Positions 2,480-26,584 of a DNA stretch of 32,000 nucleotides are shown piece by piece. Every line of letters begins with the position of its first letter. The stretch's first letter is position 1. This stretch comes from Flavobacteriaceae bacterium. Its GTDB lineage: Bacteria > Bacteroidota > Bacteroidia > Flavobacteriales > Flavobacteriaceae. The translations under genes were made by a program, and so were the position numbers. The notes beneath the pieces were generated by a model. The model made no database searches. It saw only the letters and a list, made by a program, of their open reading frames with translations, and was not told the origin of the DNA. The stretch spans positions 930,001 through 962,000 of the forward strand of contig OZ245049.1 of the NCBI GenBank assembly GCA_965224465.1, in the 5' to 3' direction.

Positions 2480-3490
2480 TTGAAAATACAACACAATATT
2501 TCATTAAAACAATACAACACTTTCGGCATTGACGTCAATGCCGAAAGATTTGTTGAAATTAATTCTGTTCTTGAATTAAAATCACTTTTAAAAATAGAAA
2601 AAGACCTTTTTATAATTAGTGGAGGAAGTAATATGTTGTTGCTTTCTGACATAAAAAAACTCGTAGTTTTCTTAAATATTGAAGGTGTTATCATACAAGA
2701 AACTCAAGAAAACGATGTTTTTGTAACTGCAAATGCAGGTGAAAACTGGCATGATTTTGTCTTGTGGTGTATTGATCAGAATTATGGAGGACTGGAAAAT
2801 TTATCTTTAATACCAGGCAATGTAGGATCCTGCCCTATTCAAAACATAGGTGCGTATGGAGTGGAGGTTAAAGATACGATTCACCAAGTAACTGCCATAG
2901 AAATTAACACTGGAAAAACAAGCATTTTTTCTAACCAAGAATGTGATTTTGGCTATAGAAACTCTATTTTCAAGAACAACTTAAAAGGAAAATTTATTAT
3001 TACAACTGTTGCTTTTAAATTGACAAAAAACGCGCATGTAATCCACAATTCCTATGGTGCCATTCAAAATGCTCTAAAAGAAAATGGTATTAAAACGCCA
3101 TCTATTTCCGACATCTCAAAAGCCATTATAGAAATTCGTACTTCTAAACTCCCTGACCCTAAAAAGATCGGAAACAGCGGAAGCTTTTTCAAAAATCCAA
3201 TTGTACAGAAAGTTGTATTTGAAAAAATTCAAAAAGAAAATCCTAAAATGCCATTTTATAAAATAAACGAAGATGCATTTAAAATACCTGCGGGTTGGCT
3301 GATTGAAAGCTGTGGCTTTAAAGGAAAAAGATTTGGTGATGCTGGAGTGCATAAAAACCAAGCTTTGGTACTTGTGAATTATGGAAATGCCACTGGAAAA
3401 GAAATTTATACATTGGCTCAAAAAATACAAACATCTATTTTAGAAACTTTCGGAATACCCTTAGAGATTGAAGTAAACATTATTGATTAA
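2480..3490 (+). CDS. murB: UDP-N-acetylenolpyruvoylglucosamine reductase
   Basis: 336 aa with a typical MurB N-terminus (ISLKQYNTFGIDVNAE) and FAD-binding-domain-like GGGSN-type segment (ISGGSNMLL), plus a C-terminal SGSFFKNP...AGWLIE...G motif region. TTG start lies 1 nt after the upstream stop; there is no nearby ATG. Confidence 0.9.
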   Translation: MKIQHNISLKQYNTFGIDVNAERFVEINSVLELKSLLKIEKDLFIISGGSNMLLLSDIKKLVVFLNIEGVIIQETQENDVFVTANAGENWHDFVLWCIDQNYGGLENLSLIPGNVGSCPIQNIGAYGVEVKDTIHQVTAIEINTGKTSIFSNQECDFGYRNSIFKNNLKGKFIITTVAFKLTKNAHVIHNSYGAIQNALKENGIKTPSISDISKAIIEIRTSKLPDPKKIGNSGSFFKNPIVQKVVFEKIQKENPKMPFYKINEDAFKIPAGWLIESCGFKGKRFGDAGVHKNQALVLVNYGNATGKEIYTLAQKIQTSILETFGIPLEIEVNIID

Positions 3491-4147
3491 TTACAACCCA
3501 AAATAATCAATATAAATAGTTTATTTTACGTGCTAGCATTGTTAAAAAACAGAACGATAGCTATGGCCATCCTTAGATTTTCCGCCTAGCTATACTACCA
3601 ATTAAAATCCAAAATGACCTATATAAATAGTTTATTTTACGTGCTAGCGTTGTTGAAAAACAGAACAATAGCTATGGCTATCCTTATATTTTCCGCCTAG
3701 CTATACTACCAATTAAAATCCAAAATGACCTATATAAATAGTTTATTTTACGTGCTAGCGTTGTTGAAAAACAGAACGATAGCTATGGCTATCCTTATAT
3801 TTTCCGCCTAGCTATACTACCAATTAAAATCCAAAATGACCTATATAAATAGTTTATTTTACGTGCTAGCGTTGTTGAAAAACAGAACGATAGCTATGGC
3901 TATCCTTATATTTTCCGCCTAGCTATACTACCAATTAAAATCCAAAATGACCTATATAAATAGTTTATTTTACGTGCTAGCGTTGTTGAAAAACAGAACG
4001 ATAGCTATGGCTATCCTTATATTTTCCGCCTAGCTATACTACCAATTAAAATCCAAAATGACCGATATAAATAGTTTATTTTACGTGCTAGCGTTGTTGA
4101 AAAATAGAACGATAGCTAAGGCTATCCTTAGATTTTCCGCCTAGCTA
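3491..4147 (+). repeat. Head-to-tail array of six 111-bp units (module A of the intergenic repeat family)
   Basis: The anchor word tataaatag recurs at 3511, 3622, 3733, 3844, 3955 and 4066, a period of exactly 111. Units 3-5 are identical by eye and unit 2 differs at 3667 only; outer units 1 and 6 carry several changes. Each unit holds the hairpin GATAGC-TATG-GCTATC (e.g. 3778-3793). Confidence 0.95.
3614..4144 (+). other. Five in-phase copies of a candidate 28-codon mini-ORF (3614-3700, 3725-3811, 3836-3922, 3947-4033, 4058-4144)
   Basis: Manual translation gives ATG...TAG, MTYINSLFYVLALLKNRTIAMAILIFSA for units 2-5 and MTDINSLFYVLALLKNRTIAKAILRFSA for unit 6. Copies are separated by 24-nt A-rich spacers. 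Unit 1 (3503-3589) has ATA in place of ATG. Coding status is unproven. Confidence 0.3.
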
Positions 4148-4252
4148 GAACAAAAAATAATTCTATTTCTAAACCGCCACTTGGAAATTTAATTGGTAGA
4201 ACGAAAAATAATTCTATTTCTAAACCTTCACTTGGATATGTATTTTGTGTTA
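4148..4252 (+). repeat. Two tandem ~51-bp copies of module B (4148-4198, 4199-4252) capping the array
   Basis: Both copies begin gaac(a/g)aaaaataattctatttCTAAACC..CACTTGG. Cores lie at 4169-4184 and 4220-4235. The second copy abuts or overlaps the stop codon of the MBL gene (4250-4252). Confidence 0.85.
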
Positions 4253-5026
4253 CACTTGTACTACTAATTGATCATAAGCTACAAAAACATTTTCTGGTAG
4301 CATTTTTTCCAAATCAGCATGAACACCAAGAAAATGACTCATATGGGTTAAATATGCTTTCTTTGGTTTTAAATAAGCGATCAATTCTAAGGACTCACTC
4401 AAACTTAAATGAGAGTGATGTTCTTTAAAACGAACAGCACTAATCACCAATACTTCTAAATTTTTAAGTTTTTCAAGTTCTTTTGGTTCTATGGTCTTCA
4501 CGTCTGTTAAGTAGGCAAACGCAGTACCAAATTTATAGCCCAATATAGGAAGATTCCCGTGCATTACTTGTATTGGAGTCACTTTTAATTGATGTAATAC
4601 AAACGTTTCTTTAGTAACAATATGCTGTTCAATATAAGGAGCACCTGGATATTTATTAACATCATTAAAAATATAGTTAAACCTTATTTTTAATTCGTTC
4701 AAAACCCTTTCTTGTGCATAAAACGGCATTTTCCCTAATTTAAAAGCATAGGGTCTAATATCATCCAATCCTGCGGTATGATCGGCATGTTCATGCGTCA
4801 ATAAAATTCCATCAATATGTTGGACATTTTCTCGCAGCATTTGATACCTAAAATCGGGGCCACAATCTATTATATAGCAAGCGTCGTTCCATTCTAACAT
4901 CACAGAAACTCGCAATCTTTTATCTCTTTTGTCCTTGGACAAAAACACAGGGTGCTCTACGCCTACTACAGGAATTCCTGTAGATGTTCCAGTACCTAAA
5001 AAAGTTAATTTTATTCCTTTCATCAT
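4250..5026 (-). CDS. MBL-fold metallo-hydrolase (PhnP-like)
   Basis: 258 aa with N-terminal LTFLGTGTSTGIP and the HxHxDH motif LTHEHADH. Confidence 0.85.
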   Translation of the reverse strand: MMKGIKLTFLGTGTSTGIPVVGVEHPVFLSKDKRDKRLRVSVMLEWNDACYIIDCGPDFRYQMLRENVQHIDGILLTHEHADHTAGLDDIRPYAFKLGKMPFYAQERVLNELKIRFNYIFNDVNKYPGAPYIEQHIVTKETFVLHQLKVTPIQVMHGNLPILGYKFGTAFAYLTDVKTIEPKELEKLKNLEVLVISAVRFKEHHSHLSLSESLELIAYLKPKKAYLTHMSHFLGVHADLEKMLPENVFVAYDQLVVQV

Positions 5027-8197: not shown

Positions 8198-8210
8198 CAG
8201 TTATACCTAC

Positions 8211-8365
8211 TTACAATCCAAAATGACAGATATAAATAGTTTGTTTTATATTCTAGTGTTATTAAAAAACAGAACGATAGTTAAGGTTATCCCTAGATTT
8301 TTCGCCTAGTTAAAACAAAAATTAATTCCATTTATAAACCGTCACTCGGAAATGTATTGGTATTG
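8211..8365 (+). repeat. Single full-length A+B copy of the intergenic repeat family
   Basis: Starts ttacaatccaaaatgacagatataaatag 13 nt after the pntB stop. Aligns to array unit 6 plus module B at roughly 85 percent identity by eye. Core ATAAACCGTCACTCGG lies at 8334-8349. Confidence 0.9.
8223..8309 (+). other. Candidate 28-codon mini-ORF in the single-copy element
   Basis: Manual translation gives MTDINSLFYILVLLKNRTIVKVIPRFFA. ATG, TAG and length are the same as in the array copies despite 13 nt differences from unit 6. Confidence 0.3.
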
Positions 8366-8382
8366 CTTCTTAAATTATTTAG

Positions 8383-8416
8383 AAGACACGTCTTTTTAGA
8401 CGTGTCTTTTTATTTT
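8383..8416 (+). terminator. Rho-independent terminator after pntB plus the repeat element
   Basis: AAGACACGTC-TTTTTA-GACGTGTCTT, a perfect 10-bp stem followed by TTTATTTT. Confidence 0.8.
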
Positions 8417-10058: not shown

Positions 10059-10069
10059 ATTTGCACTAA

Positions 10070-10228
10070 TTACAAACAAAGATAACCGATATAAATAGTT
10101 CATATAACGATCTAAAACAACTAAAAAACAGAACGATAGCAAGGATATCCTTTGATGTATCGCCTAGCTTAAACAAAAAAACAAATACATTTCTAAACCG
10201 ACACTTGGAAATGTATTTGGTATTACAA
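10070..10228 (+). repeat. Degenerate single A+B copy of the intergenic repeat family
   Basis: Starts ttacaaacaaagataaccgatataaatag 11 nt after the upstream stop. The B module is very well conserved, with core CTAAACCGACACTTGG at 10193-10208 inside a 12-bp stem (caaatacatttc/gaaatgtatttg). In the A module the mini-ORF has ATA instead of ATG and a 1-nt frame change before the stop. Confidence 0.85.
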
Positions 10229-10851: not shown

Positions 10852-11484
10852 ATGAAACCTACAAATAAACATAACATCCAATTATTGAATGATATTCCTA
10901 GAGAAAATAATTTTAAACTTCCTAAGGACTATTTCAAAACTGTTGAAGAAATCATATCTTCCACTGTTTATTTGCAACAAAAACACACTTCAGACAGCAA
11001 AATAATGTCTGTCCCCAATGGGTATTTTGACTCCATTGAAACTTCCATTGTTTCAAAACTTAAAGAAGAAGAAGTAGAAGAGACTAAAAAACAAGCTTTA
11101 TCCAATACAATTCCTACGGATTATTTTGAAACACTAGAAGATCGCGTATTTAAACGTCTTCCAAAACCAAAGCGTATCACACCATTTAAAAAAGTTTTAA
11201 AAACTGCATTTGCCCCTATTGCTATAGCAGCATCTTTATTGCTTATTGTTACTTTGGGAAACCTACATAAAGCAAACCCTATTAGTACGTTTGATACTAT
11301 TTCTAGCAACGATATTGAAGCTTGGATAGCAAGTGGAGATTTATTTTTTGACACAGAAGATTTCACAGAACTAATTACAGATAAAACCTTAGAATTTGAT
11401 ACTTTTAGTAATATCTATACCGATGAGCAAGCAATGGAATTCTTAGGAGAAACCGACTTAGAAAACATACTATTTGAAGAATAA
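10852..11484 (+). CDS. Single-pass membrane protein, putative anti-sigma factor
   Basis: Lies immediately downstream of the ECF sigma gene. One TM segment (AFAPIAIAASLLLIVTLGNL) and an acidic C-terminal domain. Function is inferred from position only. Confidence 0.55.
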   Translation: MKPTNKHNIQLLNDIPRENNFKLPKDYFKTVEEIISSTVYLQQKHTSDSKIMSVPNGYFDSIETSIVSKLKEEEVEETKKQALSNTIPTDYFETLEDRVFKRLPKPKRITPFKKVLKTAFAPIAIAASLLLIVTLGNLHKANPISTFDTISSNDIEAWIASGDLFFDTEDFTELITDKTLEFDTFSNIYTDEQAMEFLGETDLENILFEE

Positions 11485-12123: not shown

Positions 12124-13257
12124 CTAGATAATTCCTTTCAATACAGCGATTACGCTATCTATTTCTTCTTTGGTATTGAGTTTACTAAACGAAAAACGCA
12201 CTGATGTTTTATCCGCATCTTCTGAAGATAGAATTGTATTTAGCACATGTGACCCCTTACTGCTACCACTCTGGCAGGCACTTCCCCCAGATGCGGCTAT
12301 CCCTTTTAAGTCTAAATTAAATAATAGCATTCCGTAATTTCTAGGAAAACGTACATTCAAAATGATATGACTTGATTTAGAGCCCTCATTCGAATTCCCA
12401 TTATAAGCAATTCCTTCAAAACTATCATTTAACCTATTGATGAAATACGTTTTCAAAGACTGGATATATTCCGTATCCTCCATGATAGCATCACAGCCCA
12501 CTTGCATGGCTTTTCCCATCCCAATAATAGCATGCACATTTTCCGTTCCAGCACGTGCTCCTTTCTCTTGTTCACCACCGTGTAGTATTGGTTGAATTCC
12601 AAAGCCTTTTTTAATATAAGCAAAACCAACACCTTTTGGTCCGTGAAATTTATGGGCACTCGCTACCATAAAATCAATAGGAGTTTCTTTTAAATCAATC
12701 TTAAAATGTGCCACTCCTTGAACCGTATCCGAATGAAAAAGTGCCCCGTGTTGTTCACACAACAGGCTTACTTTTTTCAAATCTAACAGCGTACCAATCT
12801 CATTATTTATATACATTAAGCTCACCAATACTTTGGTGTCTGTACCCGATAACAAATGCACTAAATGGCTGTAGTCTACCGTTCCAAACTCGTCTACATC
12901 CACATCCAATACTTGAATGTTAAATTCTTTTTTTAAGGATGCAATGGTGTGCAAAACTGCATGGTGCTCAATTTTAGAAGAGATGATTGTTTGTACACCT
13001 AAATTGACTACGGCATTTCTTAAAATCAGATTATCCGCCTCGCTACCTCCAGCTGTAAAGATAATTTCGCTAGAATTTACATTCAAATAACCCGCTATAT
13101 TTTTACGTACTGTTTCCACTGCAGATTTTGCCGTCCTCCCTAATTTATGAATAGAGGATGGATTTCCAAAATTTGTTTTCATAGATTCAGCGACCACCTC
13201 TATAACGGATGGAATTATCGGTGTTGTTGCGGCATTATCAAAATATATTGTATTCAT
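12124..13257 (-). CDS. Cysteine desulfurase (NifS/IscS-type class V aminotransferase)
   Basis: 377 aa with PLP-lysine motif SAHKFHGPKGVG and active-site loop SGGSACQSG. Confidence 0.88.
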   Translation of the reverse strand: MNTIYFDNAATTPIIPSVIEVVAESMKTNFGNPSSIHKLGRTAKSAVETVRKNIAGYLNVNSSEIIFTAGGSEADNLILRNAVVNLGVQTIISSKIEHHAVLHTIASLKKEFNIQVLDVDVDEFGTVDYSHLVHLLSGTDTKVLVSLMYINNEIGTLLDLKKVSLLCEQHGALFHSDTVQGVAHFKIDLKETPIDFMVASAHKFHGPKGVGFAYIKKGFGIQPILHGGEQEKGARAGTENVHAIIGMGKAMQVGCDAIMEDTEYIQSLKTYFINRLNDSFEGIAYNGNSNEGSKSSHIILNVRFPRNYGMLLFNLDLKGIAASGGSACQSGSSKGSHVLNTILSSEDADKTSVRFSFSKLNTKEEIDSVIAVLKGII

Positions 13258-13929: not shown

Positions 13930-13968
13930 AATAACAGCTATCGTAATAACAGCTATCGTAATAACAGC
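13930..13968 (+). repeat. 15-bp tandem repeat aataacagctatcgt, about 2.6 copies
   Basis: Copies at 13930-13944 and 13945-13959, then a partial copy at 13960-13968. The reverse complement contains acgatagct, which is the module A hairpin arm. Confidence 0.85.
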
Positions 13969-14077
13969 ATTTTGTATTGAATTACCTTCGATTTACAGTC
14001 TTATTTCTCGTTCGTTTTTAATAACTCTTTGTGTTTTTTTTTAAGGGATATACATTTTTTATTGCTAAAGCATGTAG

Positions 14078-14118
14078 TTCTATTGCTAAACCTTCACTTG
14101 AAAATGTATTTGGTGTTA
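14078..14118 (+). repeat. Isolated module B fragment of the intergenic repeat family
   Basis: gttctattgCTAAACCTTCACTTGAaaatgtatttggtgtta, with the core at 14086-14101. Confidence 0.75.
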
Positions 14119-16378: not shown

Positions 16379-17170
16379 TTATATTTCTTTTTCCTTATCA
16401 TAAGGAATACTACTTAGAATGTGGTTAATGGCTTCTACTCTCGCATAGGTCTTACGATTTGCCTTAATCCGTTTCCATTGGATTGCATTGTTTTCACCAC
16501 CTTCAAACATAATGCGTCTATAATGCGTGTATTGATCCCATAAATCTTGCGCCTTTTCATCCACAGCCGTCATTTTCCATTGTTTTAATGGGTTTGTACG
16601 AATGTCTTCAAAACGTTTTTCCTGTTCACGTTTAGAAATGGACATGTATATTTTGACCAAACGAGTACCAGACTCAGTAATCATACGTTCAAAATCATTG
16701 ACTTGGTTCATGAAAATTTCGTATTCCTCTTGGGTACAAAATCCATTTACAGGTTCTACAACGGCTCTATTGTACCAACTACGGTCAAAAAAGACAATTT
16801 CACCAGCCTTTGGAAACTGTTGTACATAACGTTGAAAATACCATTGTGTTTTTTCTTCCTCTGTAGGCTTGGACAGTGCAACAATTCTAAAGTGACGTTG
16901 ATTCATACGTTCTGTAATCCTACGTATAGCCCCACCTTTTCCTGCAGCATCTCTACCTTCAAATAAAACAATAATACGTTCATTTTCATCGATAGCCCAT
17001 TGCTGTAAACGAATTAGTTCTACTTGTAGTTTTTTTAATTTTTTTTCATAATCTACAAATCGTACAGCTTTTTCTACATTAAAAGGGTCTTTCATCAACA
17101 AGGCTCTAAGCCCTTTATTGGTGTTTAATTTATCGACATCTGCTTGGGTAATTGTGTATTCTTTTTTCAT
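16379..17170 (-). CDS. ppk2: Polyphosphate kinase 2 family protein (single-domain), copy B
   Basis: 263 aa with FEGRDAAGKGG (Walker A) and FFDRSWYNRAVVEPV. Its start overlaps the upstream stop as TAATG. Confidence 0.88.
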   Translation of the reverse strand: MKKEYTITQADVDKLNTNKGLRALLMKDPFNVEKAVRFVDYEKKLKKLQVELIRLQQWAIDENERIIVLFEGRDAAGKGGAIRRITERMNQRHFRIVALSKPTEEEKTQWYFQRYVQQFPKAGEIVFFDRSWYNRAVVEPVNGFCTQEEYEIFMNQVNDFERMITESGTRLVKIYMSISKREQEKRFEDIRTNPLKQWKMTAVDEKAQDLWDQYTHYRRIMFEGGENNAIQWKRIKANRKTYARVEAINHILSSIPYDKEKEI

Positions 17171-18030
17171 TAGTCGGTCTGATTAGATGAACGAAAATAG
17201 CGCATAATATAATTTGGATCTGGGATTACAGAAGTCGTTGAATCTTGTTTTCCTTCATAATCAAAACAAGAAAGGACATGCCGTATACACTCTAATCTCG
17301 CAGCCTTTTTATCATTTGCTTTTACTATAATCCACGGACTATAACTGGTATGAGTTTTACCAAACATTTGGTTTTTATACAAACTATAATCATCCCATAA
17401 TTCCTGTCCTTTTTTATCTACGGGACTAAATTTCCAACGTTTTAACGGGTTTTTTATTCGTGAATCAAAACGTGCTAATTGTTCTTTTTTAGAAATTGAA
17501 AACCAAAATTTAATAATTACAATCCCATCTTCATATAACATATGCTCAAATTCTGGAACTTGCTGCATAAACTCGTTATACTGCTGTACATCACAAAACC
17601 CCATTACAGGTTCTACTACTGCCCTATTATACCAACTACGGTCAAAAAAGGAAATTTCTCCAGGATTTGGTAAATTTTTTATATACCTCGTAAAATACCA
17701 CTGTCCTTTTTCTACAGTCGTAGGAACAGCCAAGGCAACATGTTTTACTGAGCGCGGATTCAAATGCTCCATAAAACGACGAATATTACCGCCTTTTCCA
17801 GCGGCATCTCTACCTTCAAAAATCACAACTACGCGTTTTTTATGCTTAGAAACCCACTGTTGAAGTTTTACAAGTTCTATTTGTAAATTTTTCAATTCAG
17901 ATTCGTAGTATAAACGTTTTTTAACTTTCTCTATATTGATATTCTTCGTCTTGATGATATCTAGTAGCTCTTGGTTGGTAGCGCTATTCGAAAAATCTTC
18001 AAGGGTTAATACCGCAGTTTTTTTTTCCAT
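17170..18030 (-). CDS. ppk2: Polyphosphate kinase 2 family protein (single-domain), copy A
   Basis: 286 aa with FEGRDAAGKGG and FFDRSWYNRAVVEPV. Its start is 5 nt after the stop of the upstream membrane-protein gene. Confidence 0.88.
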   Translation of the reverse strand: MEKKTAVLTLEDFSNSATNQELLDIIKTKNINIEKVKKRLYYESELKNLQIELVKLQQWVSKHKKRVVVIFEGRDAAGKGGNIRRFMEHLNPRSVKHVALAVPTTVEKGQWYFTRYIKNLPNPGEISFFDRSWYNRAVVEPVMGFCDVQQYNEFMQQVPEFEHMLYEDGIVIIKFWFSISKKEQLARFDSRIKNPLKRWKFSPVDKKGQELWDDYSLYKNQMFGKTHTSYSPWIIVKANDKKAARLECIRHVLSCFDYEGKQDSTTSVIPDPNYIMRYFRSSNQTD

Positions 18031-18035
18031 TCACT

Positions 18036-18752
18036 TTAGGGTTCTACAGTTACACAATCTTTGGACATGTTAGATATCTGCAATTTCGCATCGGAAGGTG
18101 AGAGATAAGGAATCCCAAGACCAAGTCCGCGTAAAATAAATAACAAACCAATTATAACGACAAATACAGGGATAAATCGCTGTATTTTTTTTCGCATGGA
18201 TAAATTTACAACATTTCCGAGAAAAAAAATACTAACCATCATGGGAATTGTTCCTAAACCAAATAAAAACATATAAAAGGCTCCGTAAATTTCTGAGCCA
18301 GTAGCCACAGACCCTAATAAGGCCATATAAACCAACCCACAAGGTAAAAAACCATTAAAAATACCTAAGGAGAATAGTGCCTTACTCGATTTTCTTTGCA
18401 GGTAAATCCCCATTTTCTTTTTTACAGTTTGAATCAATCCAAAAACAGGTTTCGAAAAATTGTACTTATTTAATATCCGTGCAGGAACAAGCACAACAAC
18501 AATCATTACAACCCCCATTAAAATAGAGATACGCTGCTGAAAACCTGCTAAATATAATCCTTTACCAACAAATCCAAACAACAATCCAATAACAGAATAG
18601 CTAAGCACCCTACCTAATTGGTACAGGAATAATTGCCACAGCATTTTTGGAGTATTTGATCTATCTACGGGCAATACAAATACAATAGGTCCACACATAC
18701 CAACACAGTGCATGCTACCTGCAATACCTAATAAAAACGCAGTCCAAAGCAT
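18036..18752 (-). CDS. DsbD_2 / TauE-SafE-like integral membrane protein of the cco assembly cluster
   Basis: 238 aa with about 6 TM segments and an N-terminal MHCVGMCGPI motif. Its start directly abuts the fixH-like stop (TAGATG). Confidence 0.7.
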   Translation of the reverse strand: MLWTAFLLGIAGSMHCVGMCGPIVFVLPVDRSNTPKMLWQLFLYQLGRVLSYSVIGLLFGFVGKGLYLAGFQQRISILMGVVMIVVVLVPARILNKYNFSKPVFGLIQTVKKKMGIYLQRKSSKALFSLGIFNGFLPCGLVYMALLGSVATGSEIYGAFYMFLFGLGTIPMMVSIFFLGNVVNLSMRKKIQRFIPVFVVIIGLLFILRGLGLGIPYLSPSDAKLQISNMSKDCVTVEP

Positions 18753-19205
18753 CTAGTAATTGAATTTATCTTTATACAGGTACAATTTTTTATCGTAAGA
18801 CCAATCTACTTTCACATTCCATCTACCCTCTATTAATTTATCATCCTGAACCAAATACGTAGCATTTGTTAATACTATTGGTTTCTTAAAATCAAAATTT
18901 TCATCGGATAAACGCATAAAATAAATAGTTCCCTTAATTTCAGAAGCCACCATATTAGGAGGAAAATGAATCAATATACCTTGACTAGATTTGGTTAACG
19001 TAATGTTATTCTCTAACCCTTCAGCATTTTCTAATTTATCAAATTCTCCTTGATATTTCATTTCATCTTTATAGTAATGTTCTGAAACTAAATGATGGTC
19101 ATATTTTGGCACAAACGTTGCTTTATACACATAAGATAATATAAAAATTATAAAAGATGCTAATGCGATTACGATGCCCAAAGGCCATATTATTTTTGCT
19201 TTCAT
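18753..19205 (-). CDS. FixH-family protein
   Basis: 150 aa with one N-terminal TM segment. Lies immediately downstream of ccoG, as in ccoGH(I)S clusters. Confidence 0.65.
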   Translation of the reverse strand: MKAKIIWPLGIVIALASFIIFILSYVYKATFVPKYDHHLVSEHYYKDEMKYQGEFDKLENAEGLENNITLTKSSQGILIHFPPNMVASEIKGTIYFMRLSDENFDFKKPIVLTNATYLVQDDKLIEGRWNVKVDWSYDKKLYLYKDKFNY

Positions 19206-19264
19206 TTCTTTAATTTATCGTTGCAAAGGTATCTTAATTAAAATATCTTTGATAAAAACTATTG

Positions 19265-20680
19265 TTAATTCCTGAGAACAGGTCCCATAAAGTTTGTGGT
19301 AGTCGATTCTATTAAAACATCGTTTGAATAAATTCCCAATTCAATTTTTTCCTTGGAGGAACTCAAATCAGTTTTAAGAATATCTATAAATAACGTTCCT
19401 TCAATCAGTCCTTGTTTAGGAACAGTATAATTACCTCCTACCAAAATTACTTTTCCTTTATGTGATATCAATCGGATGTCAATTTTATCAATTTCTCTAG
19501 TTGTTTTATTGATTAATTTGAATGTATACACATTTTTAATAGTGGTATTGGTAGATTGAAATGTTTGTCCTGGAAGGTGGAAAATTTTTGCTTCAACATC
19601 ATTTCTAATAAATAACATGGTGACTAAAACCCCCATCAATACCGTAAGAATTCCTGAATAAACAACGAGTCGAATATTGAATTTAAATTTATTTTTCTTT
19701 ACTATTTCTTCTTCCGACGCATAGCGAACCAATCCTTTTTCAAATCCTACTTGTTCCATCACAGCATCACAAGCATCAATACATGCGGTACAGTTAACAC
19801 ATTCCATTTGTGTACCATTTCGAATATCTATACCTGTAGGACATACCTGAACACATTGTTTACAATCTATACAGTCTCCGTGTCCAAGAGCCTCTCTATC
19901 ATCTTTCCTATGTATTTTTTTACGTCCGTTTTCTCCTTCTCCACGAACAAAATCATACGCAACGTTGATAGATTTATCATCCAATAACACCCCTTGTAAA
20001 CGCCCATAAGGACAGACAATAATACATGCCTGCTCTCTAAACCACGCAAACACAAAATAAAATACACTTGTAAATATCAAGAGTTTTACAAAGGTTCCTA
20101 TATGATTTAAAGGACCATCCGTAATATGAGCAATTAGGACATCTCCGCCTATAAAATACGCTAGAAACACATTGGCAATTACTAAAGATAATAAGAAGAA
20201 AATAGACCATTTTGTGGCTTTTTTTATAATTTTATCTCGAGTCCAAGGCATTTTATCTAAGCGTAGTTGCTTGGAGCGGTCACCTTCAATAAAAAACTCA
20301 ACTTTCCTGAAAATCATTTCAAGAAAAATGGTCTGTGGACACACCCATCCACAAAAAATACGACCAAAAACTACCGTAAATAAAATGATAAAAACAATGC
20401 TTGTCAACATTGATATTACCAATAGGTAAAAATCTTGTGGCCAAAATGGAAATCCGAAAATATTAAATTTTCGATCCATTAAGTTAAATAGTAAAAACTG
20501 ATTACCATTAATTTTCACAAAGGGGGCTGAAAACAAAAATGCGATGAGCAACCAACTTACGTAGCCCCGATAATTGTATAACTTCCCTTTGGGTTGTTTT
20601 GGATAAATAAAATTTCTTCCACCATCTGCATTGATGGTTCCAATAGAATCTCTGAATGTTTCTGTGCCTTGTACTCCCAT
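19265..20680 (-). CDS. ccoG: cbb3 oxidase accessory protein CcoG (4Fe-4S ferredoxin-type membrane protein)
   Basis: ORF 19265..20728 starts at TTG; the ATG at 20680 (MGVQGTETFRDS) is preferred. Two ferredoxin Cys clusters (CIDCKQCVQVCP and CVNCTACIDAC) plus TM segments. Confidence 0.88.
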   Translation of the reverse strand: MGVQGTETFRDSIGTINADGGRNFIYPKQPKGKLYNYRGYVSWLLIAFLFSAPFVKINGNQFLLFNLMDRKFNIFGFPFWPQDFYLLVISMLTSIVFIILFTVVFGRIFCGWVCPQTIFLEMIFRKVEFFIEGDRSKQLRLDKMPWTRDKIIKKATKWSIFFLLSLVIANVFLAYFIGGDVLIAHITDGPLNHIGTFVKLLIFTSVFYFVFAWFREQACIIVCPYGRLQGVLLDDKSINVAYDFVRGEGENGRKKIHRKDDREALGHGDCIDCKQCVQVCPTGIDIRNGTQMECVNCTACIDACDAVMEQVGFEKGLVRYASEEEIVKKNKFKFNIRLVVYSGILTVLMGVLVTMLFIRNDVEAKIFHLPGQTFQSTNTTIKNVYTFKLINKTTREIDKIDIRLISHKGKVILVGGNYTVPKQGLIEGTLFIDILKTDLSSSKEKIELGIYSNDVLIESTTTNFMGPVLRN

Positions 20681-20841
20681 AGTGTTTTTTATAATGAAAA
20701 AGGCTATCTGTCTTTTTTCACTCTGCAATAATAACCATCTTTAGAAAAACAGCCTGTTACATAAGTGACAAAAAACACATAGCCCATCGCTATTTTAAAC
20801 TAAAAGCAGCGTCAAAAAGACACTGCTCTTTCTCTATTCAT

Positions 20842-21489
20842 TTATTTCCCGTCCCAAATAATGTCACCTTGCGGTGCTTTTGGTGCTGCAGGTGAAACAC
20901 CTTGCATAGAAATAATATAACTTGCCAATTGTTGACGTTCTAATTTACTGATAGAACTCTCCCATGAAATCATCCCTTTCCCAGGGCGTCCTCCTTTAGA
21001 TATTGTATTAAAAATATCATCCATTCCTCCACCAAGAATCCATTGATTGTCAGTAAGATTTGGTCCAATACCACCTCCTAAATCCACTAAATGACATGCA
21101 GTACAGGTCTTAGAAGCAAACAATTCTTTTCCTTTGGTTAAATTTTCTGCATCTTTAAAAACTTCCAAGTTTTTCACACTAAACAATTCTGGATTTGCCT
21201 TTTTATAAGCTTCCAATTCTATTTTTGCTTGAGCAACATCCGCTTTTAATTCATCATATTGATTGTAATCTCCACGCAATGCGAAAAAATAATACCCAAT
21301 ACTAATTACAATGGTAATATAGAACCCGTACAACCACCATGGTGGAAGTACGTTGTCCAATTCCTTAATCCCATCATAATCGTGATCCGTCATGATGTCT
21401 TCCTCTGTGGCTATGTCATGTGCCTTGGTCATCGACTTAATAAATCGTTTCCAACCTGATATGTGTTCTGAATTTTTATTCATGGTCAT
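20842..21489 (-). CDS. ccoP: cbb3 oxidase subunit III-like cytochrome c (CcoP), apparently monoheme
   Basis: FixP N-terminal signature DHDYDGIKELDNVLPPWW, one TM segment and a single CXXCH (CTACH) in 215 aa. Confidence 0.8.
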   Translation of the reverse strand: MTMNKNSEHISGWKRFIKSMTKAHDIATEEDIMTDHDYDGIKELDNVLPPWWLYGFYITIVISIGYYFFALRGDYNQYDELKADVAQAKIELEAYKKANPELFSVKNLEVFKDAENLTKGKELFASKTCTACHLVDLGGGIGPNLTDNQWILGGGMDDIFNTISKGGRPGKGMISWESSISKLERQQLASYIISMQGVSPAAPKAPQGDIIWDGK

Positions 21490-21670
21490 TCAATTTTGTG
21501 CTGTTAGAATCTAATGGAAATCGACTCACTTCTTCAATGTTTGATTTTTTCATTTTTATAACGATGAATAACATCACAACAAAAACAGTAAAAAACAGAA
21601 GTAGAGAAATAATCGGATAGATGGCTACCCCATCAATAGTTTCTAAATTATATTTAATATACCTTAACAT
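21476..21670 (-). CDS. ccoQ: CcoQ/FixQ-family small membrane protein
   Basis: 64 aa with one TM segment, positioned between ccoNO and ccoP. Overlaps the ccoP start by 14 nt. Confidence 0.7.
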   Translation of the reverse strand: MLRYIKYNLETIDGVAIYPIISLLLFFTVFVVMLFIVIKMKKSNIEEVSRFPLDSNSTKLNDHE

Positions 21671-21675
21671 TGTTA

Positions 21676-23859
21676 TTAGTTTTTTGCAGTACGACCTACT
21701 TTTATATCAGTTCCCAAACGTTGTAAATAAGCAATCAAAGCAATAATTTCTCTCTCTTGCATATTTTGATCTCCATAATTTTTAACAAACTCTGGATCTT
21801 CACGTAAGTTCTCAACAATACCAGCTGCTTGTTTAGCTATTGACTCACGAGCATTGGCAATTTCCTCTTTAGAATAAGGGTGACCTAAGGTAGCCAATCC
21901 TTCTAATTTAGCTTCAATTCCTGAAGCATTTAACGTATTCTTAATCAACCATGTATAACGTGGCATAATAGAACCTGGTGAAGTAGATCTTGGATCTAAC
22001 ATGTGCTTAAAGTGCCAGTTATCGTTGTATTTACCACCTATTCTATGTACATCCGGTCCTGTACGACGCGATCCCCAAAGGAATGGACGGTCGTAAATAA
22101 ACTCACCTGCTTGAGAATATAGGTCTGGATCGTTATCACTATAACGCGCTACTTCCGATCGAAATGGACGAATCATTTGTGAGTGACAGTTATTACACCC
22201 TTCTCTAATGTATAAATCACGTCCTTCCAATTCTAGTGGAGAATACGGTTTTACACTGGCAATAATTTTTACGTTTGATTTCACTAAAATCATTGGAACT
22301 AATTCTACAAGTGAACCTACTAAAATAGCAACGGTTGTAAGAATAGAAAACAAGATTGTTCTTCTTTCTAACCAAGAGTGAATAGGCTCTCCTACTGCTC
22401 TACCAGAAGAGATTTTTTTCAATGGAGCTGCTTCTGCAAGTTCATCTTCTACCTTAGACCCAATCTTAGCAGTCATCAATATATTATATGCCATAATTAT
22501 GAACCCTGTTAAATATAAGGTTCCTCCAATAGCACGCATCCAATACATTGGAATAATAGAGGTTACAGTATCTAAAAAATTTCCATAAACTAAAGTTCCA
22601 TCAGGCTTAAATTCATTCCACATAAAGGCCTGAGTAAATCCTGCGATATATAAAGGAATTGCATAAAACAAAATACCAATGGTTCCAATTAAGAAATGAG
22701 TATTTGCCAATTTCTTAGAATACAGCTCTGTTTTAAATAGTTTAGTTGCCAACCAATATACGATTCCTGCAATCATAAATCCATTCCAAGATAAGGTACC
22801 AATATGAACGTGACCAATAATCCAATCCGTATAGTGACCAATCGCATTTAAATTTTTAAATGATAACATAGGCCCTTCAAAAGTACTCATCCCGTAGCCC
22901 GTAATAGCAACCACAAAGAATTTTAATTCTGGAGTCTCTCGTACTTTATCCCAAGCACCTCTAAGAGTTAACAATCCATTAATCATCCCTCCCCATGAAG
23001 GGAAAATAAGCATAATAGAGAATACTGTCCCTAAATTTTGTGCCCATTCTGGTAATGCTGTGTACAATAAATGGTGAGGTCCTGCCCAAATATATAAGAA
23101 AATCAATGTCCAGAAGTGGATGATAGATAATCGGTAAGAATACACGGGACGATTTGCTATTTTTGGTACAAAATAGTACATCAGCCCTAAGATTGGTGTG
23201 GTTAAGAAAAATGCCACTGCATTGTGTCCATACCACCATTGCACTAACGCATCTTGTACTCCTGCGTATACAGAGTAACTTTTAAATCCAGAAACTGGTA
23301 AAGCCAAATTATTAAATATGTATAGAACAGCAATGGTTATAAACGTAGCAATGTAAAACCAAATAGCCACATATATATGTCGCTGACGACGTTTTAAAAT
23401 GGTTCCAATTAAATTGATCCCAAAAACCACCCAAATTAGAACTACCCAAATATCAATAGGCCATTCTAATTCTGCGTATTCTTTAGAAGAACTATACCCT
23501 AAAGGAAGCGTTATAGCCGCAGCTACAATGATTAATTGCCATCCCCAAAAGTGAATCCTACTTAATAAATCACTCAACATACGTGCTTTTAACAAGCGTT
23601 GCGTAGAATAATAAATCCCCATAAATGCACCATTTCCTACAAAGGCAAAAATTACTGCATTGGTATGCAAGGGTCTCAATCGACCAAAACTCAACCACGG
23701 AATGGCGTTGTCTGAACCTGCGAATTCTAAAAGCCCGGGAGCCACAAAAAGAAATGCTACTAGTAGCCCTACTAGCATTCCAACAACTCCCCATAGAATT
23801 GTTGCCCAAAGGAACATTTTTACAATTTTGTTATCGTAATAAAATTGTTCTTTTTCCAT
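21676..23859 (-). CDS. ccoN: Fused cbb3-type cytochrome c oxidase subunits I and II (CcoN-CcoO)
   Basis: 727 aa. The N-terminal ~470 aa is a polytopic heme-copper oxidase (HNAVAFF, GPHHL, IGHVHIG). The C-terminal part has the CcoO heme c site REGCNNCHSQMIRP. Confidence 0.92.
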   Translation of the reverse strand: MEKEQFYYDNKIVKMFLWATILWGVVGMLVGLLVAFLFVAPGLLEFAGSDNAIPWLSFGRLRPLHTNAVIFAFVGNGAFMGIYYSTQRLLKARMLSDLLSRIHFWGWQLIIVAAAITLPLGYSSSKEYAELEWPIDIWVVLIWVVFGINLIGTILKRRQRHIYVAIWFYIATFITIAVLYIFNNLALPVSGFKSYSVYAGVQDALVQWWYGHNAVAFFLTTPILGLMYYFVPKIANRPVYSYRLSIIHFWTLIFLYIWAGPHHLLYTALPEWAQNLGTVFSIMLIFPSWGGMINGLLTLRGAWDKVRETPELKFFVVAITGYGMSTFEGPMLSFKNLNAIGHYTDWIIGHVHIGTLSWNGFMIAGIVYWLATKLFKTELYSKKLANTHFLIGTIGILFYAIPLYIAGFTQAFMWNEFKPDGTLVYGNFLDTVTSIIPMYWMRAIGGTLYLTGFIIMAYNILMTAKIGSKVEDELAEAAPLKKISSGRAVGEPIHSWLERRTILFSILTTVAILVGSLVELVPMILVKSNVKIIASVKPYSPLELEGRDLYIREGCNNCHSQMIRPFRSEVARYSDNDPDLYSQAGEFIYDRPFLWGSRRTGPDVHRIGGKYNDNWHFKHMLDPRSTSPGSIMPRYTWLIKNTLNASGIEAKLEGLATLGHPYSKEEIANARESIAKQAAGIVENLREDPEFVKNYGDQNMQEREIIALIAYLQRLGTDIKVGRTAKN

Positions 23860-23893
23860 ACTAAAATAATGTTAGTTTGTTATTAATTATTGA

Positions 23894-24070
23894 TTATTGT
23901 TTGTTTTCTTTTTTAGTACTAGGTTTCACAAGTTCATCATCGAACAGCATTCGAACAGAAGGTGTATAGGTATCATCATATTGTCCACTTTTTAACGATT
24001 TTATAAAAGCCACAAAAAACAATACTGCTACTATAATACTTACCCCTATTGTGATGTAAATTACTCCCAT
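23894..24070 (-). CDS. ccoS: cbb3 oxidase maturation protein CcoS
   Basis: Not in the ORF track (58 codons). Manual translation gives MGVIYITIGVSIIVAVLFFVAFIKSLKSGQYDDTYTPSVRMLFDDELVKPSTKKENKQ: one TM segment plus the SGQYDD signature. Confidence 0.8.
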   Translation of the reverse strand: MGVIYITIGVSIIVAVLFFVAFIKSLKSGQYDDTYTPSVRMLFDDELVKPSTKKENKQ

Positions 24071-24112
24071 CGCTCTCTTAATTTATATATTTAGGAATAA
24101 AAACAGTTAAAA

Positions 24113-24128
24113 CATGATAATTATCATG
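24113..24128. promoter_or_regulatory. FNR/CRP-type box, perfect 16-bp palindrome CATGATAATTATCATG
   Basis: TGAT-N4-ATCA core, 43 nt upstream of the ccoS ATG in the 105-bp ccoI-ccoS spacer. Confidence 0.65.
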
Positions 24129-24175
24129 TAAAACAGACAAAATTGTCTTTTAATCCTAAATATCGAACAAATGTA

Positions 24176-26533
24176 CTATTTTTTTGTTAACAAATTCGTC
24201 AAAACAGTGACAAAAATCACAATAGTTATAGAACTTAAAGGCATTAAAATTGCTGCAACAACGGGTGTTAATTGTCCACTGAGCGCAAAGTACATACCTA
24301 CAATATTATAGAGAAACGAAAGCGCAAAACTAAGTTTAATAATTGCGACGGTTTTTTTTGAATATCTGAGAAAGCTTGGCAAAGAGCCAAACAGACTTGC
24401 ATCCATAATAATGTCACAGGCAGGAGAAAAAACGTTGATATTTTCAGAAATTGAAATTCCTACATTACTTTGCATAAGCGCACCTGCATCATTCAAACCA
24501 TCACCTATCATTAAGACCTTATTATCAGCTTGCATCTTTTTTATAAATAATAATTTGTCTTCAGGTTTTTGATGAAACACCAATTGAGTCCCCTTAGGCA
24601 ATATAGATTCTAAAAATGATTTTTCCCCATCATTATCCCCAGACAGCACCACTAATTTATAATGAACAGCCAAGGCATCAAAAACTTCTTTTAATTGAGG
24701 TCTGTATTTATTTTTTAATTGATAACACCCTTTTACCTGTCCATCTATCTGAACGTATATAGCAGTATCATGTGTGTTTTCTTTTTCCGCTCCAACATAG
24801 GAAGCAGATCCGAATTTTACTTGAATGCCACCTAGAAATGCTTCCACACCTTTACCTAGCTTTTCTTTAAAATTAAGCATCTCCATTTGTTGAAAATCTA
24901 CATTTAAAAAGCGATACAAAGCACGACTTAAAGGGTGATTAGAAGTTCGTAACAAAGATTTAAGAATTATTTGTTCTTGTGTAGACAAGGCAATTCCTTT
25001 ATAGATAATAGCGCTATCTTTTGTACTGGTAAGCGTTCCCGTTTTATCGAATACAATGGCATCAATTTTTGCTAAGTGTTCAACCGTATCTGCATTTTTT
25101 ACATAAAATTTACGATAGCCAAAAATTCTTAAAATATTCCCTAAAGCAAAAGGAGCAGACAAAGCCAAGGCGCAAGGACAAGCAATAATCAGTACCGCCG
25201 TAACCACATTCACGGCAAGACGAATATCTATAAAAGACCAATAGATTCCAGAAATAAGGGCAATTGTTAAGATGGCTATTGTAAAGTATTTACTTATCGA
25301 ATCTGTAAGATTTTTTATTGATTTCGTTGATTTTTTCGAAAACACATCATTCCCCCAAAGCTGCGTCAAATAGCTCTGTGCTATTGTTTCTATGACTTCT
25401 ATTTCTATAGCGCCACCTGTTTGTTTCCCTCCTGCATAAAGTGTATCTCCAGATTTCTTTTGTACTGGATTTGCTTCTCCAGTTACAAAACTATAGTCAA
25501 TTTCTGCATCCCCATTAATTAAAATACAATCTACAGGGATTAATTCTTCATTTCTTATTAGCAATCGATCGGTTTTAGCAATGTCTTGAATCGGAACATT
25601 TACTTCTTTTCCTTCAAAAATTTTAGTAACTGCTATTGGGAAATATGATTTATAATCACGTTCAAAAGATAAATAATTATAGGTTTTCTTTTGGAAAAAT
25701 TTTCCTAATAATAAAAAGAACACGAGCCCTGTTAAACTATCAAAAAAACCAGGACCTAAGTCAAAAAGAACTTCAACAACACTTCGAACAAACAAAACAG
25801 CAATTCCCAAAGATATCGGAACATCAATGTTTAATATTTTATGAGAAATCCCTTTATAGGCACTTATAAAATAATCTCGCGCTGAATAAAACACCACTGG
25901 AATGGACATCACCAAGATAATGCCTCTAAACACATATTTATATTTATTCAACCAGTATTCGTCTACTTCAAAATATTCTGGAAAGGAAAGTAACATTACA
26001 TTTCCAAAAACAAAAGCAGCGATGGTTACTTGATACAACAGTGTTTTATCTGCCTTGTTTTTTGTTCCTTCAGTATCGTCCAAACTTATATATGGTTCAT
26101 ATCCTATAGAACTCATTAGTTCTACCACTTCCCTTAAATTAATTTCTTTATTCTTAAAGGTAAACCGTACTGTTTTATCAGGAAAATTAACTGTAGAGGT
26201 AACAATACCACTATGCAACTTGTTTAAGTTTTCCAAAATCCAAATACAGGAACTACAATGAATGGTCGGAATAAACAATTTAACAACCGAAGTGGTATCA
26301 TCAGAAAAATCAAATAATTTGCGAATGATATCCGTATTTTCAAGATAGGCATATTTTTCTTTGATCTCATTAGGAATGCTTCCTGGTGTTTTTTCGAAAT
26401 CATAATAGCAATTCAATTCACTTTGATGCAAAATTTCAAATACAGTTTTACAGCCGTTACAACAAAAAACTTTCTGATCAATTATGTGTAATTTATCCTC
26501 ACAATCATTTCCACAATGATAACAAACATCCAT
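24176..26533 (-). CDS. ccoI: Copper-translocating P1B-type ATPase CcoI/FixI
   Basis: ORF 24176..26569 starts at TTG; the ATG at 26533 (MDVCYHCGNDC...FCCNGCKTVF) is preferred. Has the CPC motif (IACPCALALS), DKTGTLT and GDGLNDAGAL. Confidence 0.9.
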   Translation of the reverse strand: MDVCYHCGNDCEDKLHIIDQKVFCCNGCKTVFEILHQSELNCYYDFEKTPGSIPNEIKEKYAYLENTDIIRKLFDFSDDTTSVVKLFIPTIHCSSCIWILENLNKLHSGIVTSTVNFPDKTVRFTFKNKEINLREVVELMSSIGYEPYISLDDTEGTKNKADKTLLYQVTIAAFVFGNVMLLSFPEYFEVDEYWLNKYKYVFRGIILVMSIPVVFYSARDYFISAYKGISHKILNIDVPISLGIAVLFVRSVVEVLFDLGPGFFDSLTGLVFFLLLGKFFQKKTYNYLSFERDYKSYFPIAVTKIFEGKEVNVPIQDIAKTDRLLIRNEELIPVDCILINGDAEIDYSFVTGEANPVQKKSGDTLYAGGKQTGGAIEIEVIETIAQSYLTQLWGNDVFSKKSTKSIKNLTDSISKYFTIAILTIALISGIYWSFIDIRLAVNVVTAVLIIACPCALALSAPFALGNILRIFGYRKFYVKNADTVEHLAKIDAIVFDKTGTLTSTKDSAIIYKGIALSTQEQIILKSLLRTSNHPLSRALYRFLNVDFQQMEMLNFKEKLGKGVEAFLGGIQVKFGSASYVGAEKENTHDTAIYVQIDGQVKGCYQLKNKYRPQLKEVFDALAVHYKLVVLSGDNDGEKSFLESILPKGTQLVFHQKPEDKLLFIKKMQADNKVLMIGDGLNDAGALMQSNVGISISENINVFSPACDIIMDASLFGSLPSFLRYSKKTVAIIKLSFALSFLYNIVGMYFALSGQLTPVVAAILMPLSSITIVIFVTVLTNLLTKK

Positions 26534-26557
26534 GCGCAGCGAATTATTAATTTTTAA

Positions 26558-26565
26558 CAAATCTA
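26558..26565 (-). promoter_or_regulatory. Candidate -7 box (TAnnTTTG) for ccoI
   Basis: Minus-strand tagatttg, 25 nt upstream of the ATG at 26533. Confidence 0.35.
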
Positions 26566-26584
26566 ACAATTTATAAGTTCCGAC

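Follow-up and report, generated by a model that had tools for sequence, protein, structure and literature searches.

The 32,000-nucleotide stretch considered here (the window; positions 930,001 to 962,000 of contig OZ245049.1 in the Flavobacteriaceae bacterium assembly GCA_965224465.1) contains murB, encoding UDP-N-acetylmuramate dehydrogenase, at 2480–3490 on the forward strand and, convergent with it, the gene for a metallo-β-lactamase (MBL)-fold hydrolase at 4250–5026 on the reverse strand. The former is assigned from its open reading frame (ORF) and from homologues that have PF01565 and PF02873 and are named MurB, and the latter from its ORF and orthologues with PF00753, PF12706, and PF23023. 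Because murB ends at 3490 and the MBL stop codon occupies 4250–4252, the 759-bp spacer between them (3491–4249) is repeat throughout; the last codons and TAA stop of murB also overlap the degenerate 5' end of the first repeat unit. Tandem Repeats Finder places an array at 3489–4147, the only strong one in the window, with a period of 111, 5.9 copies, 97% matches, no indels, and a score of 1220, and its G+C content is ∼31%, compared with 33% for the window. Among its six 111-bp units, units 3–5 are identical (their number being taken from the assembly sequence alone), unit 2 has a single change, at 3667, and units 1 and 6 differ from unit 3 by 9 and 4 mismatches, respectively, over the 104 nt compared. 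Past GCCTAGCTA the array gives way to a 51-bp module that is present twice (4146–4196 and 4197–4247, 44/51 identical). The original prediction for this locus had described the convergent spacer as wholly composed of six 111-bp units followed by two 51-bp modules, with three identical central units and one change in unit 2, and this description is borne out by the repeat finder, the register of the units, and the gene ends. It had also excluded a CRISPR array, which is similarly rejected here because the units lie head-to-tail without spacers.

The repeat unit and its cap had been taken as separate things, but they are the left (A) and right (B) parts of one imperfect palindrome of ∼160 bp. The A arm, ∼104–111 bp, consists of a 5' inverted repeat, a core, and an apex hairpin, and the B arm, ∼51 bp, has the 3' inverted repeat at its end. 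The terminal inverted repeats are ∼22–33 nt long and imperfect (∼64–82%), the 5' end of A (TACCAATTAAAATCCAAAATG) and the 3' end of B (CACTTGGAAATTTAATTGGTA) matching in inverted orientation over 22 nt at 82%. A complete element of this kind is formed in the spacer by unit 6 and the first of the two B modules (B1), at 4040–4199 on the forward strand; it gives a full-length nhmmer match at 4041–4198 (E 3.5e-49), and its terminal repeats pair. The element is small and AT-rich, has a 28-codon ORF as its longest coding potential, and contains no transposase gene. Seven full copies were compared, and their consensus fold is a long rod made up of a terminal helix, three internal helices, and the apex hairpin GATAGC-NNNN-GCTATC. 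On this consensus structure 85.6% of cells are paired, as compared with 34–52% when the partners are slid by 1–3 columns, and the terminal helix (columns 4–19 with 145–161) is 80% paired across the seven copies. Each strand of the copy designated L002, in the metagenome-assembled genome (MAG) NORP129, also forms a rod, with folding energies of −35.8 kcal/mol (z −4.8) for one and −47.7 kcal/mol (z −6.7) for the other. Covariation is modest, with 5 pairs changed on both sides and values as high in 105 of 500 shuffles. Since departures from pairing of both the G·U type and the A·C type occur among the seven copies, no RNA strand is singled out.

Within the source genome, copies were sought in the 32-kb window, where an nhmmer model built from all six units detects A arms at 8211–8314 (E 1.7e-22) and 10069–10169 (E 1.5e-12), with a B arm directly after each. 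The first is part of a single complete A+B copy at 8204–8362 on the forward strand (full-length model E 3.8e-43), which lies in the 3' region of pntB upstream of a conserved intrinsic terminator (8377–8410). The second is part of an older single A+B copy at 10064–10223, also on the forward strand (E 1.2e-37), which is located between a gene for a 484-residue protein and a gene for an extracytoplasmic function sigma factor and is 77% identical to the unit 6 + B1 element. Lone B fragments were also identified by nhmmer, one at 14068–14114 on the forward strand in a convergent spacer and one at 1049–1081 on the reverse strand in a divergent spacer. The latter fragment, upstream of an aminotransferase gene, is flanked by a 43-nt direct repeat (972–1014 and 1161–1203; 86%, 189 bp apart); this segment is single in NORP129, which suggests a duplication or insertion of ∼189 bp in the window. 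About 100 bp upstream of the former is a perfect 15-bp tandem repeat (AATAACAGCTATCGT x2.6) at 13930–13968, which has AGCTATCGT in common with the reverse complement of the A apex and may be a remnant or a chance resemblance.

Other genomes were scanned with a pattern composed of two blocks common to the local copies, which matched 8 of 8 local A units and nothing in shuffled sequences; as both collection scans demand exact pattern matches, the census is a lower bound. In GTDB, represented by one genome per species, the pattern matches five places, and four are true family members, L001 and L004 in MAG NORP150 and L002 and L005 in MAG NORP129, both of them Flavobacteriaceae from North Pond; the remaining place, L003, is a chance match and not a member. 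The four MAG copies are at unrelated sites, each with one A followed by one B. A relaxed A pattern run against a metagenome collection yielded three chance matches only, without nhmmer similarity, and blastn of the complete unit 6 + B1 element against plasmids and phages gave no match. As far as the exact-pattern scans show, the family is confined to a small clade of marine Flavobacteriaceae (three genomes). A tandem array is present at only one locus, the other copies always having exactly one A and one B. It may be added that the L005 locus has a lone 5' A-arm fragment of ∼36 nt (ACACCAAATAAAGTTCCAAATGACCATTTATAAATA; 1725–1760) on the opposite side of the gene that has the full element at its 3' end. 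The alternative that the array is a private, inert satellite, which the original prediction had kept in view, is contradicted by these homologous nhmmer-detected copies in the window and in two other genomes.

The closest matches to the window's MurB come from North Pond MAGs (82–87% identity), followed by Tenacibaculum, Lutibacter, and Polaribacter (∼68%), and the relatives referred to in the following are the syntenic loci of four MAG lineages, reached through their MurB homologues. All three A-bearing sites of the window are unoccupied in 4 of 4 relatives. In NORP129 the murB stop (7722) directly abuts the MBL stop (7723), and in NORP150 the two genes overlap by 4 bp, three independent assemblies being in agreement on the empty junction. 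Two other relatives have murB/MBL spacers of 132 and 342 bp, in which nhmmer detects no A or B homology. The sites at pntB and at the gene for the 484-residue protein are likewise empty in the four relatives, with the flanks and the pntB terminator conserved. NORP129 and NORP150 nevertheless carry the family, at other sites. That orthologous sites are occupied in one genome and empty in others, and that further copies lie at non-orthologous positions, identifies this as a mobile element; the presence of five family loci in the window and, by nhmmer, of none in the ∼20-kb syntenic stretches of the four relatives suggests that it has expanded in the source genome. In its size, terminal inverted repeats, dispersal, and presence/absence polymorphism, the element is most likely a miniature inverted-repeat transposable element (MITE). 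Among the three possibilities originally put forward for the array (an amplified MITE-like element, a structured RNA, or a series of small ORFs), it is the first that the evidence supports. With regard to the same junction, it is of note that the inserts of two relatives (342 bp at 11012–11353 of locus L014 and 132 bp at 11012–11143 of locus L012) are unrelated. The junction has the look of a site that has received insertions repeatedly; motifs in the L014 insert (TAGCTA/GATAGCTA) recall the A core, without an nhmmer match. Synteny with the four relatives stops after ∼12,030, where the window has a class-V aminotransferase (12124–13257) and they have a gene for an ABC-F ATPase of 541–543 residues.

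The mode of insertion can be examined at the boundary between the array and the B modules. When GCCTAGCTA is joined to GAACG, the product is the family's own junction of A and B (GCCTAGC-TA-GAAC), with one TA inside CTAG. As the rejoined outer halves restore the family junction, the insertion point of the copy between them, unit 6 + B1, is the TA of a CTAG. Five of seven copies have the form CCAA...TTGG with a TA on either side, and removal of the 8204–8362 copy so as to leave one TA gives GTTATTGCTT, the sequence at the same place in NORP150 being CTTATTCCTT. Duplication of a TA is a hallmark of IS630/Tc1-mariner elements (PMC2170065), and for IS630 there is a preference for TA in CTAG (PMC2170065, citing Tenzen & Ohtsubo 1991). 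The TA flanks and the CTAG target may thus point, less firmly than the evidence for mobility, to an enzyme of the IS630/Tc1-mariner type. A search of the window and the relatives' loci for terminal-repeat-like sequences beside a transposase returned only known copies and one 5' remnant. Of the 53 CTAG tetranucleotides in the window, 13 are within the 764-bp block 3489–4252; if CTAG is the insertion target, the element would make its own landing sites.

The array is best interpreted as a block of ∼160-bp non-coding mobile elements, one nested in another, whose left arms have been multiplied by unequal recombination, a reading to which we assign a probability of about 0.7. It rests in large part on the terminal-repeat subtypes, which co-vary between the two ends, the pair at columns 12/153 being CG in 4 copies, AU in 2, and UA in 1. 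Unit 1 (3489–3599, forward strand), which has a "C-type" 5' inverted repeat (AATTACAACCC), is truncated at the murB stop, and has no ATG, and B2 (4199–4249, forward strand), which has a "G-type" end (..GGATATGTATTTTGTG) and abuts the MBL stop codon, belong to the C/G type. Units 2–6, B1 (4148–4198, forward strand; 3' inverted repeat ..GGAAATTTAATTGGTA), and L002 belong to the A/T type. The pairing of the ends follows the same division. The 5' ends of units 3 and 6 have a pairing score of 13 with B1 and 6 with B2, whereas the 5' end of unit 1 scores 7 with B2 and 2 with B1. Furthermore, B1 is closer to the B arm of L002 (47/54) than to B2 (38/54), and unit 6 (4044–4147, forward strand) is closer to the A arm of L002 (5 mismatches in 104) than to unit 1 (10). 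The subtype match, the pairing of the ends, and the similarity to L002 together distinguish an outer copy (unit 1 ... B2) from an inner copy (unit 6 + B1). Units 2–5 (3600–4043, forward strand) are four copies of a chimeric A arm, as is apparent from the table of diagnostic sites and from the register; they match unit 6 over positions 1–56 (diagnostic positions 6, 9, 17, 19, 50, and 56), match unit 1 at positions 62 and 76, and have private changes at 21 and 88. This mosaic and the order of the units are what one unequal exchange between the A arms of the two copies would leave behind once the chimera had been amplified. The original prediction had attributed the divergence of the edge units to incomplete homogenization; the divergence itself is evident, but two nested copies, unit 1/B2 and unit 6/B1, account for it better.

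The history of the locus may accordingly be pictured as follows. A first element (unit 1 ... B2) would have inserted exactly between the abutting stop codons of murB and the MBL gene, and a second copy of the other subtype (unit 6 + B1) would then have entered at the TA of the CTAG at the A/B boundary of the first, to give the order A-A-B-B. The adjacent A arms, ∼90% identical, could have misaligned, and an unequal crossover between positions 56 and 62 would produce a chimeric third unit. This unit presumably gained two point changes and was subsequently amplified to four copies by unequal exchange or slippage. Mobilization would have been in trans, by an IS630/Tc1-mariner-type transposase encoded outside the window. 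There is precedent both for modular arrays enriched between convergent genes, in the BOX elements (PMC3049150), and for a double insertion followed by expansion of an array (PMC5932611).

A single insertion followed by independent slippage duplications, giving six A and two B without nesting and with edge units that escaped homogenization, is the simplest reading of the architecture; it could draw on the TA microhomology at both junctions, and internal amplification of the boxB type is known (PMC3049150). It is nevertheless unlikely. B1 and unit 6 are closer to L002 than to B2 and unit 1, the subtype match between the two ends would have to have arisen by convergent mutation at mirrored sites, and slippage gives no reason for the left boundary of the repeat to coincide exactly with the element terminus. 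It might also be supposed that the copy number is an artefact of assembly, the three identical units being a collapsed or expanded loop, as a perfect repeat of >333 bp is difficult for short reads. This is very unlikely, given that an identical MurB is encoded on a contig of 5.24 Mb, a length suggestive of a finished or long-read assembly, and that private variants in units 1, 2, and 6 anchor the array; moreover, the existence of the element family is independent of the question of copy number.

It should be recognized that several observations sit less comfortably with nested insertion and unequal crossover of a transposase-mobilized element. The flanks are too diverged for a target-site duplication to be defined to the base, the inner copy has three extra 5' bases (TAC), and the 32-kb window contains no transposase gene, so that none with matching ends was seen. 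A single crossover accounts for position 80 of the chimeric unit only if unit 1 mutated afterwards; the C found there in unit 1 occurs in no other family member and would be such a later mutation. The comparison involves seven full copies only, and the relatives are represented by MAGs, from which repeats may drop out. Finally, the inner element (4040–4199) is 93.8% identical over 160 nt to L002 (5380–5540 of that locus), although murB is 83% identical at the nucleotide level, with ∼65% identity at third codon positions, and third positions of the orthologous genes are 60–68% identical. Such cross-species identity is unexplained by pure junk without recent horizontal spread, and the difference between 93.8% and a neutral level of ∼65% therefore requires either recent horizontal spread or constraint on the element.

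The possibility of constraint leads to the question of function. The apex hairpin, GATAGC-TATG-GCTATC, recurs every 111 bp in the array (3556–3571, 3667–3682, 3778–3793, 3889–3904, 4000–4015, and 4111–4126), as seen in the folds and in a scan for terminator-like sites. In this pattern scan 9 sites are found where 0.4 are expected, and both strands of each unit match because the hairpin has an A-run on one side and a T-run on the other. It looks like a weak bidirectional terminator, with a stem of only 6 bp, 3 of them G-C. On this basis the units could be a functional RNA or terminator module, such as a 3'-untranslated region element, a small RNA, or a bidirectional terminator, maintained in multiple copies by selection to insulate murB from the MBL gene. 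The presence of a hairpin and T-run on both strands of each unit would agree with such a role, as would the location of five of the seven A-bearing loci in the sense orientation just downstream of a gene, a cross-species identity of 94% that is far above neutral, the maintenance of the apex stem while its loop varies (TATG, TAAG, TACG, TAT), with G·U variants occurring, and the fact that murB and the MBL gene abut in relatives without a terminator between them. However, four relatives manage without the element, and the weakness of the stem is a further difficulty. The copies at 8204–8362 and in L005 are upstream of strong canonical terminators, so that they are not needed as terminators there, and two loci have other orientations, the L001 copy being antisense, past a terminator, and the L004 copy (617–767) adjoining a tRNA-Arg(TCG) gene (528–602) at a distance of 15 bp. 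Rfam gave no match for the whole window at gathering thresholds and nothing credible for the repeat region at E values up to 10, the highest-scoring being BTnc060, with 29 bits where the threshold is 229. Together with the modest covariation and with the lack of a strand-specific RNA signal, the antisense strand being the one that folds better, this leaves the structured-RNA option of the original prediction with no real support, and selection of a functional module at this locus is of low probability. The broader proposition, that the element is a mobile and selected bidirectional terminator or insulator (or has an RNA or peptide cargo) and that the six-unit array was selected to separate the convergent genes, appears quite improbable. 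The array is probably a selfish or neutral by-product, with a role as spacer or terminator between colliding genes as a minor possibility; the array itself would most likely have no dedicated function and would at most provide weak bidirectional terminators or spacers between them.

Similar considerations apply to coding potential. Each unit has a stop in every one of the six frames, which agrees with the original prediction that the array does not encode a repeat protein, yet units 2–6 each hold a complete 28-codon ORF beginning with ATG on the forward strand (3614–3700, 3725–3811, 3836–3922, 3947–4033, and 4058–4144). Were the array a polycistronic set of small genes for the 28-residue peptide (MTDINSLFYVLALLKNRTIAKAILRFSA), such as a small membrane peptide or one resembling a toxin, the integrity of the ORF in units 2–6, the 8204–8362 copy, L001, and L002 would be expected, and among the intact copies the variable columns at codon positions 1, 2, and 3 number 4, 8, and 12, with 11 synonymous and 17 non-synonymous distinct codon changes; large BOX elements can also form expressed ORFs (PMC3049150). 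Neither the codon-position nor the synonymous skew is significant, however, and both come from copies picked for an intact frame. Among 10 aligned copies (9 distinct sequences), 4 no longer have an intact start or frame: unit 1, L005, the 10064–10223 copy, and L004 lack the ATG, and the last two also have a frameshift or stop. The conserved blocks show no variation at any of the three codon positions, the ATG is inside the terminal inverted repeat, a KNR sequence breaks the hydrophobic stretch so that there is no single membrane-spanning helix, and no processing or partner genes are nearby. The 28-codon ORFs are thus probably incidental; a peptide-encoding array is highly improbable, and the small-ORF option originally suggested is left without real support. 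An integron attC array, a type I toxin-antitoxin system, and a Bacteroidota promoter (TAnnTTTG) were also considered and were dropped by eye, as the motifs or partner genes are absent.

Elsewhere in the window are two adjacent PPK2 paralogues (263 and 286 residues) at 16379–18030 and a cbb3-oxidase cluster at 18036–26569, which encodes a fused CcoN-CcoO (727 residues; COX1+FixO), homologues of FixP, FixG, and FixH, a DsbD_2 protein, and a P-type ATPase.

If its history is as proposed, the murB/MBL spacer would represent a legible bacterial case of the conversion of a mobile element into a minisatellite, in which the outer and inner copies, the crossover interval, and the later changes can all be read. 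In practical terms, the array is expected to vary between strains and should serve as a hypervariable typing marker, and the family should be masked in the prediction of small RNAs, small ORFs, and terminators for this clade. The cross-species identity flags either a recent horizontal spread of transposons among subseafloor and marine flavobacteria or constraint. A full-text literature search on MITEs of Flavobacteriaceae yielded no paper in which such elements are described, and the element apparently represents an undescribed family of a known kind, MITE- or BOX-like.

Among characterized systems, several groups of small bacterial repeats share features with the element. The MITEs associated with IS630/Tc1-mariner enzymes, including RUP, Correia/NEMIS, and Nezha, are similar in being 100–160 bp in length with terminal inverted repeats and a rod-like fold, and also in the TA flanks (5 of 7 copies here), nested insertion in the TA of CTAG, and polymorphic sites (PMC2170065, PMC3049150). 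They differ from the present element in that its inverted repeats are imperfect, its target duplication is putative, and the window contains no autonomous partner. ERIC and REPIN sequences resemble it as imperfect palindromes of diverged inverted halves that are present in transcribed intergenic regions and also occur as lone halves, but the element is longer than units based on repetitive extragenic palindromes and no RAYT gene was seen; the TA flanks observed here are not a feature of REPINs. The mycobacterial MIRU is an intergenic minisatellite used for strain typing. Variable-number tandem repeats employed for this purpose, such as boxB in pneumococcal multilocus analysis, are also head-to-tail arrays of ∼50–110-bp units in a spacer, the central units being nearly identical (PMC1315331, PMC3049150), but for the murB/MBL array it is possible to trace the unit back to a truncated mobile element.

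The pneumococcal BOX element is, by analogy of architecture, the closest described analogue. The BOX elements (boxA-boxB(n)-boxC) of Streptococcus pneumoniae and S. suis are, like the element described here, interspersed repeats that are modular, non-coding, and AT-rich, and their two ends form a duplex with each other; one module occurs in a tandem run of variable length. They are enriched between convergent genes, frequently provide or adjoin a stop codon, may give rise to small ORFs, and include copies that have inserted into other copies (PMC3049150). They belong to a different phylum and have no sequence similarity to the present element. In BOX, moreover, the tandem module is the internal 45-nt boxB, whereas in the murB/MBL array the repeated unit includes the 5' terminal repeat and the 3' module is doubled, which indicates nesting and unequal crossover as opposed to slippage of an internal module. 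The route proposed for the array is paralleled by the birth of satellites from transposons such as hobo in Drosophila, where two copies at one site gave rise to a dimer and then to unequal exchange (PMC5932611). The hobo case is eukaryotic and involves full-length elements and much larger arrays (PMC5932611), whereas the one described here is bacterial, probably began with a nested dimer, and has reached six units.

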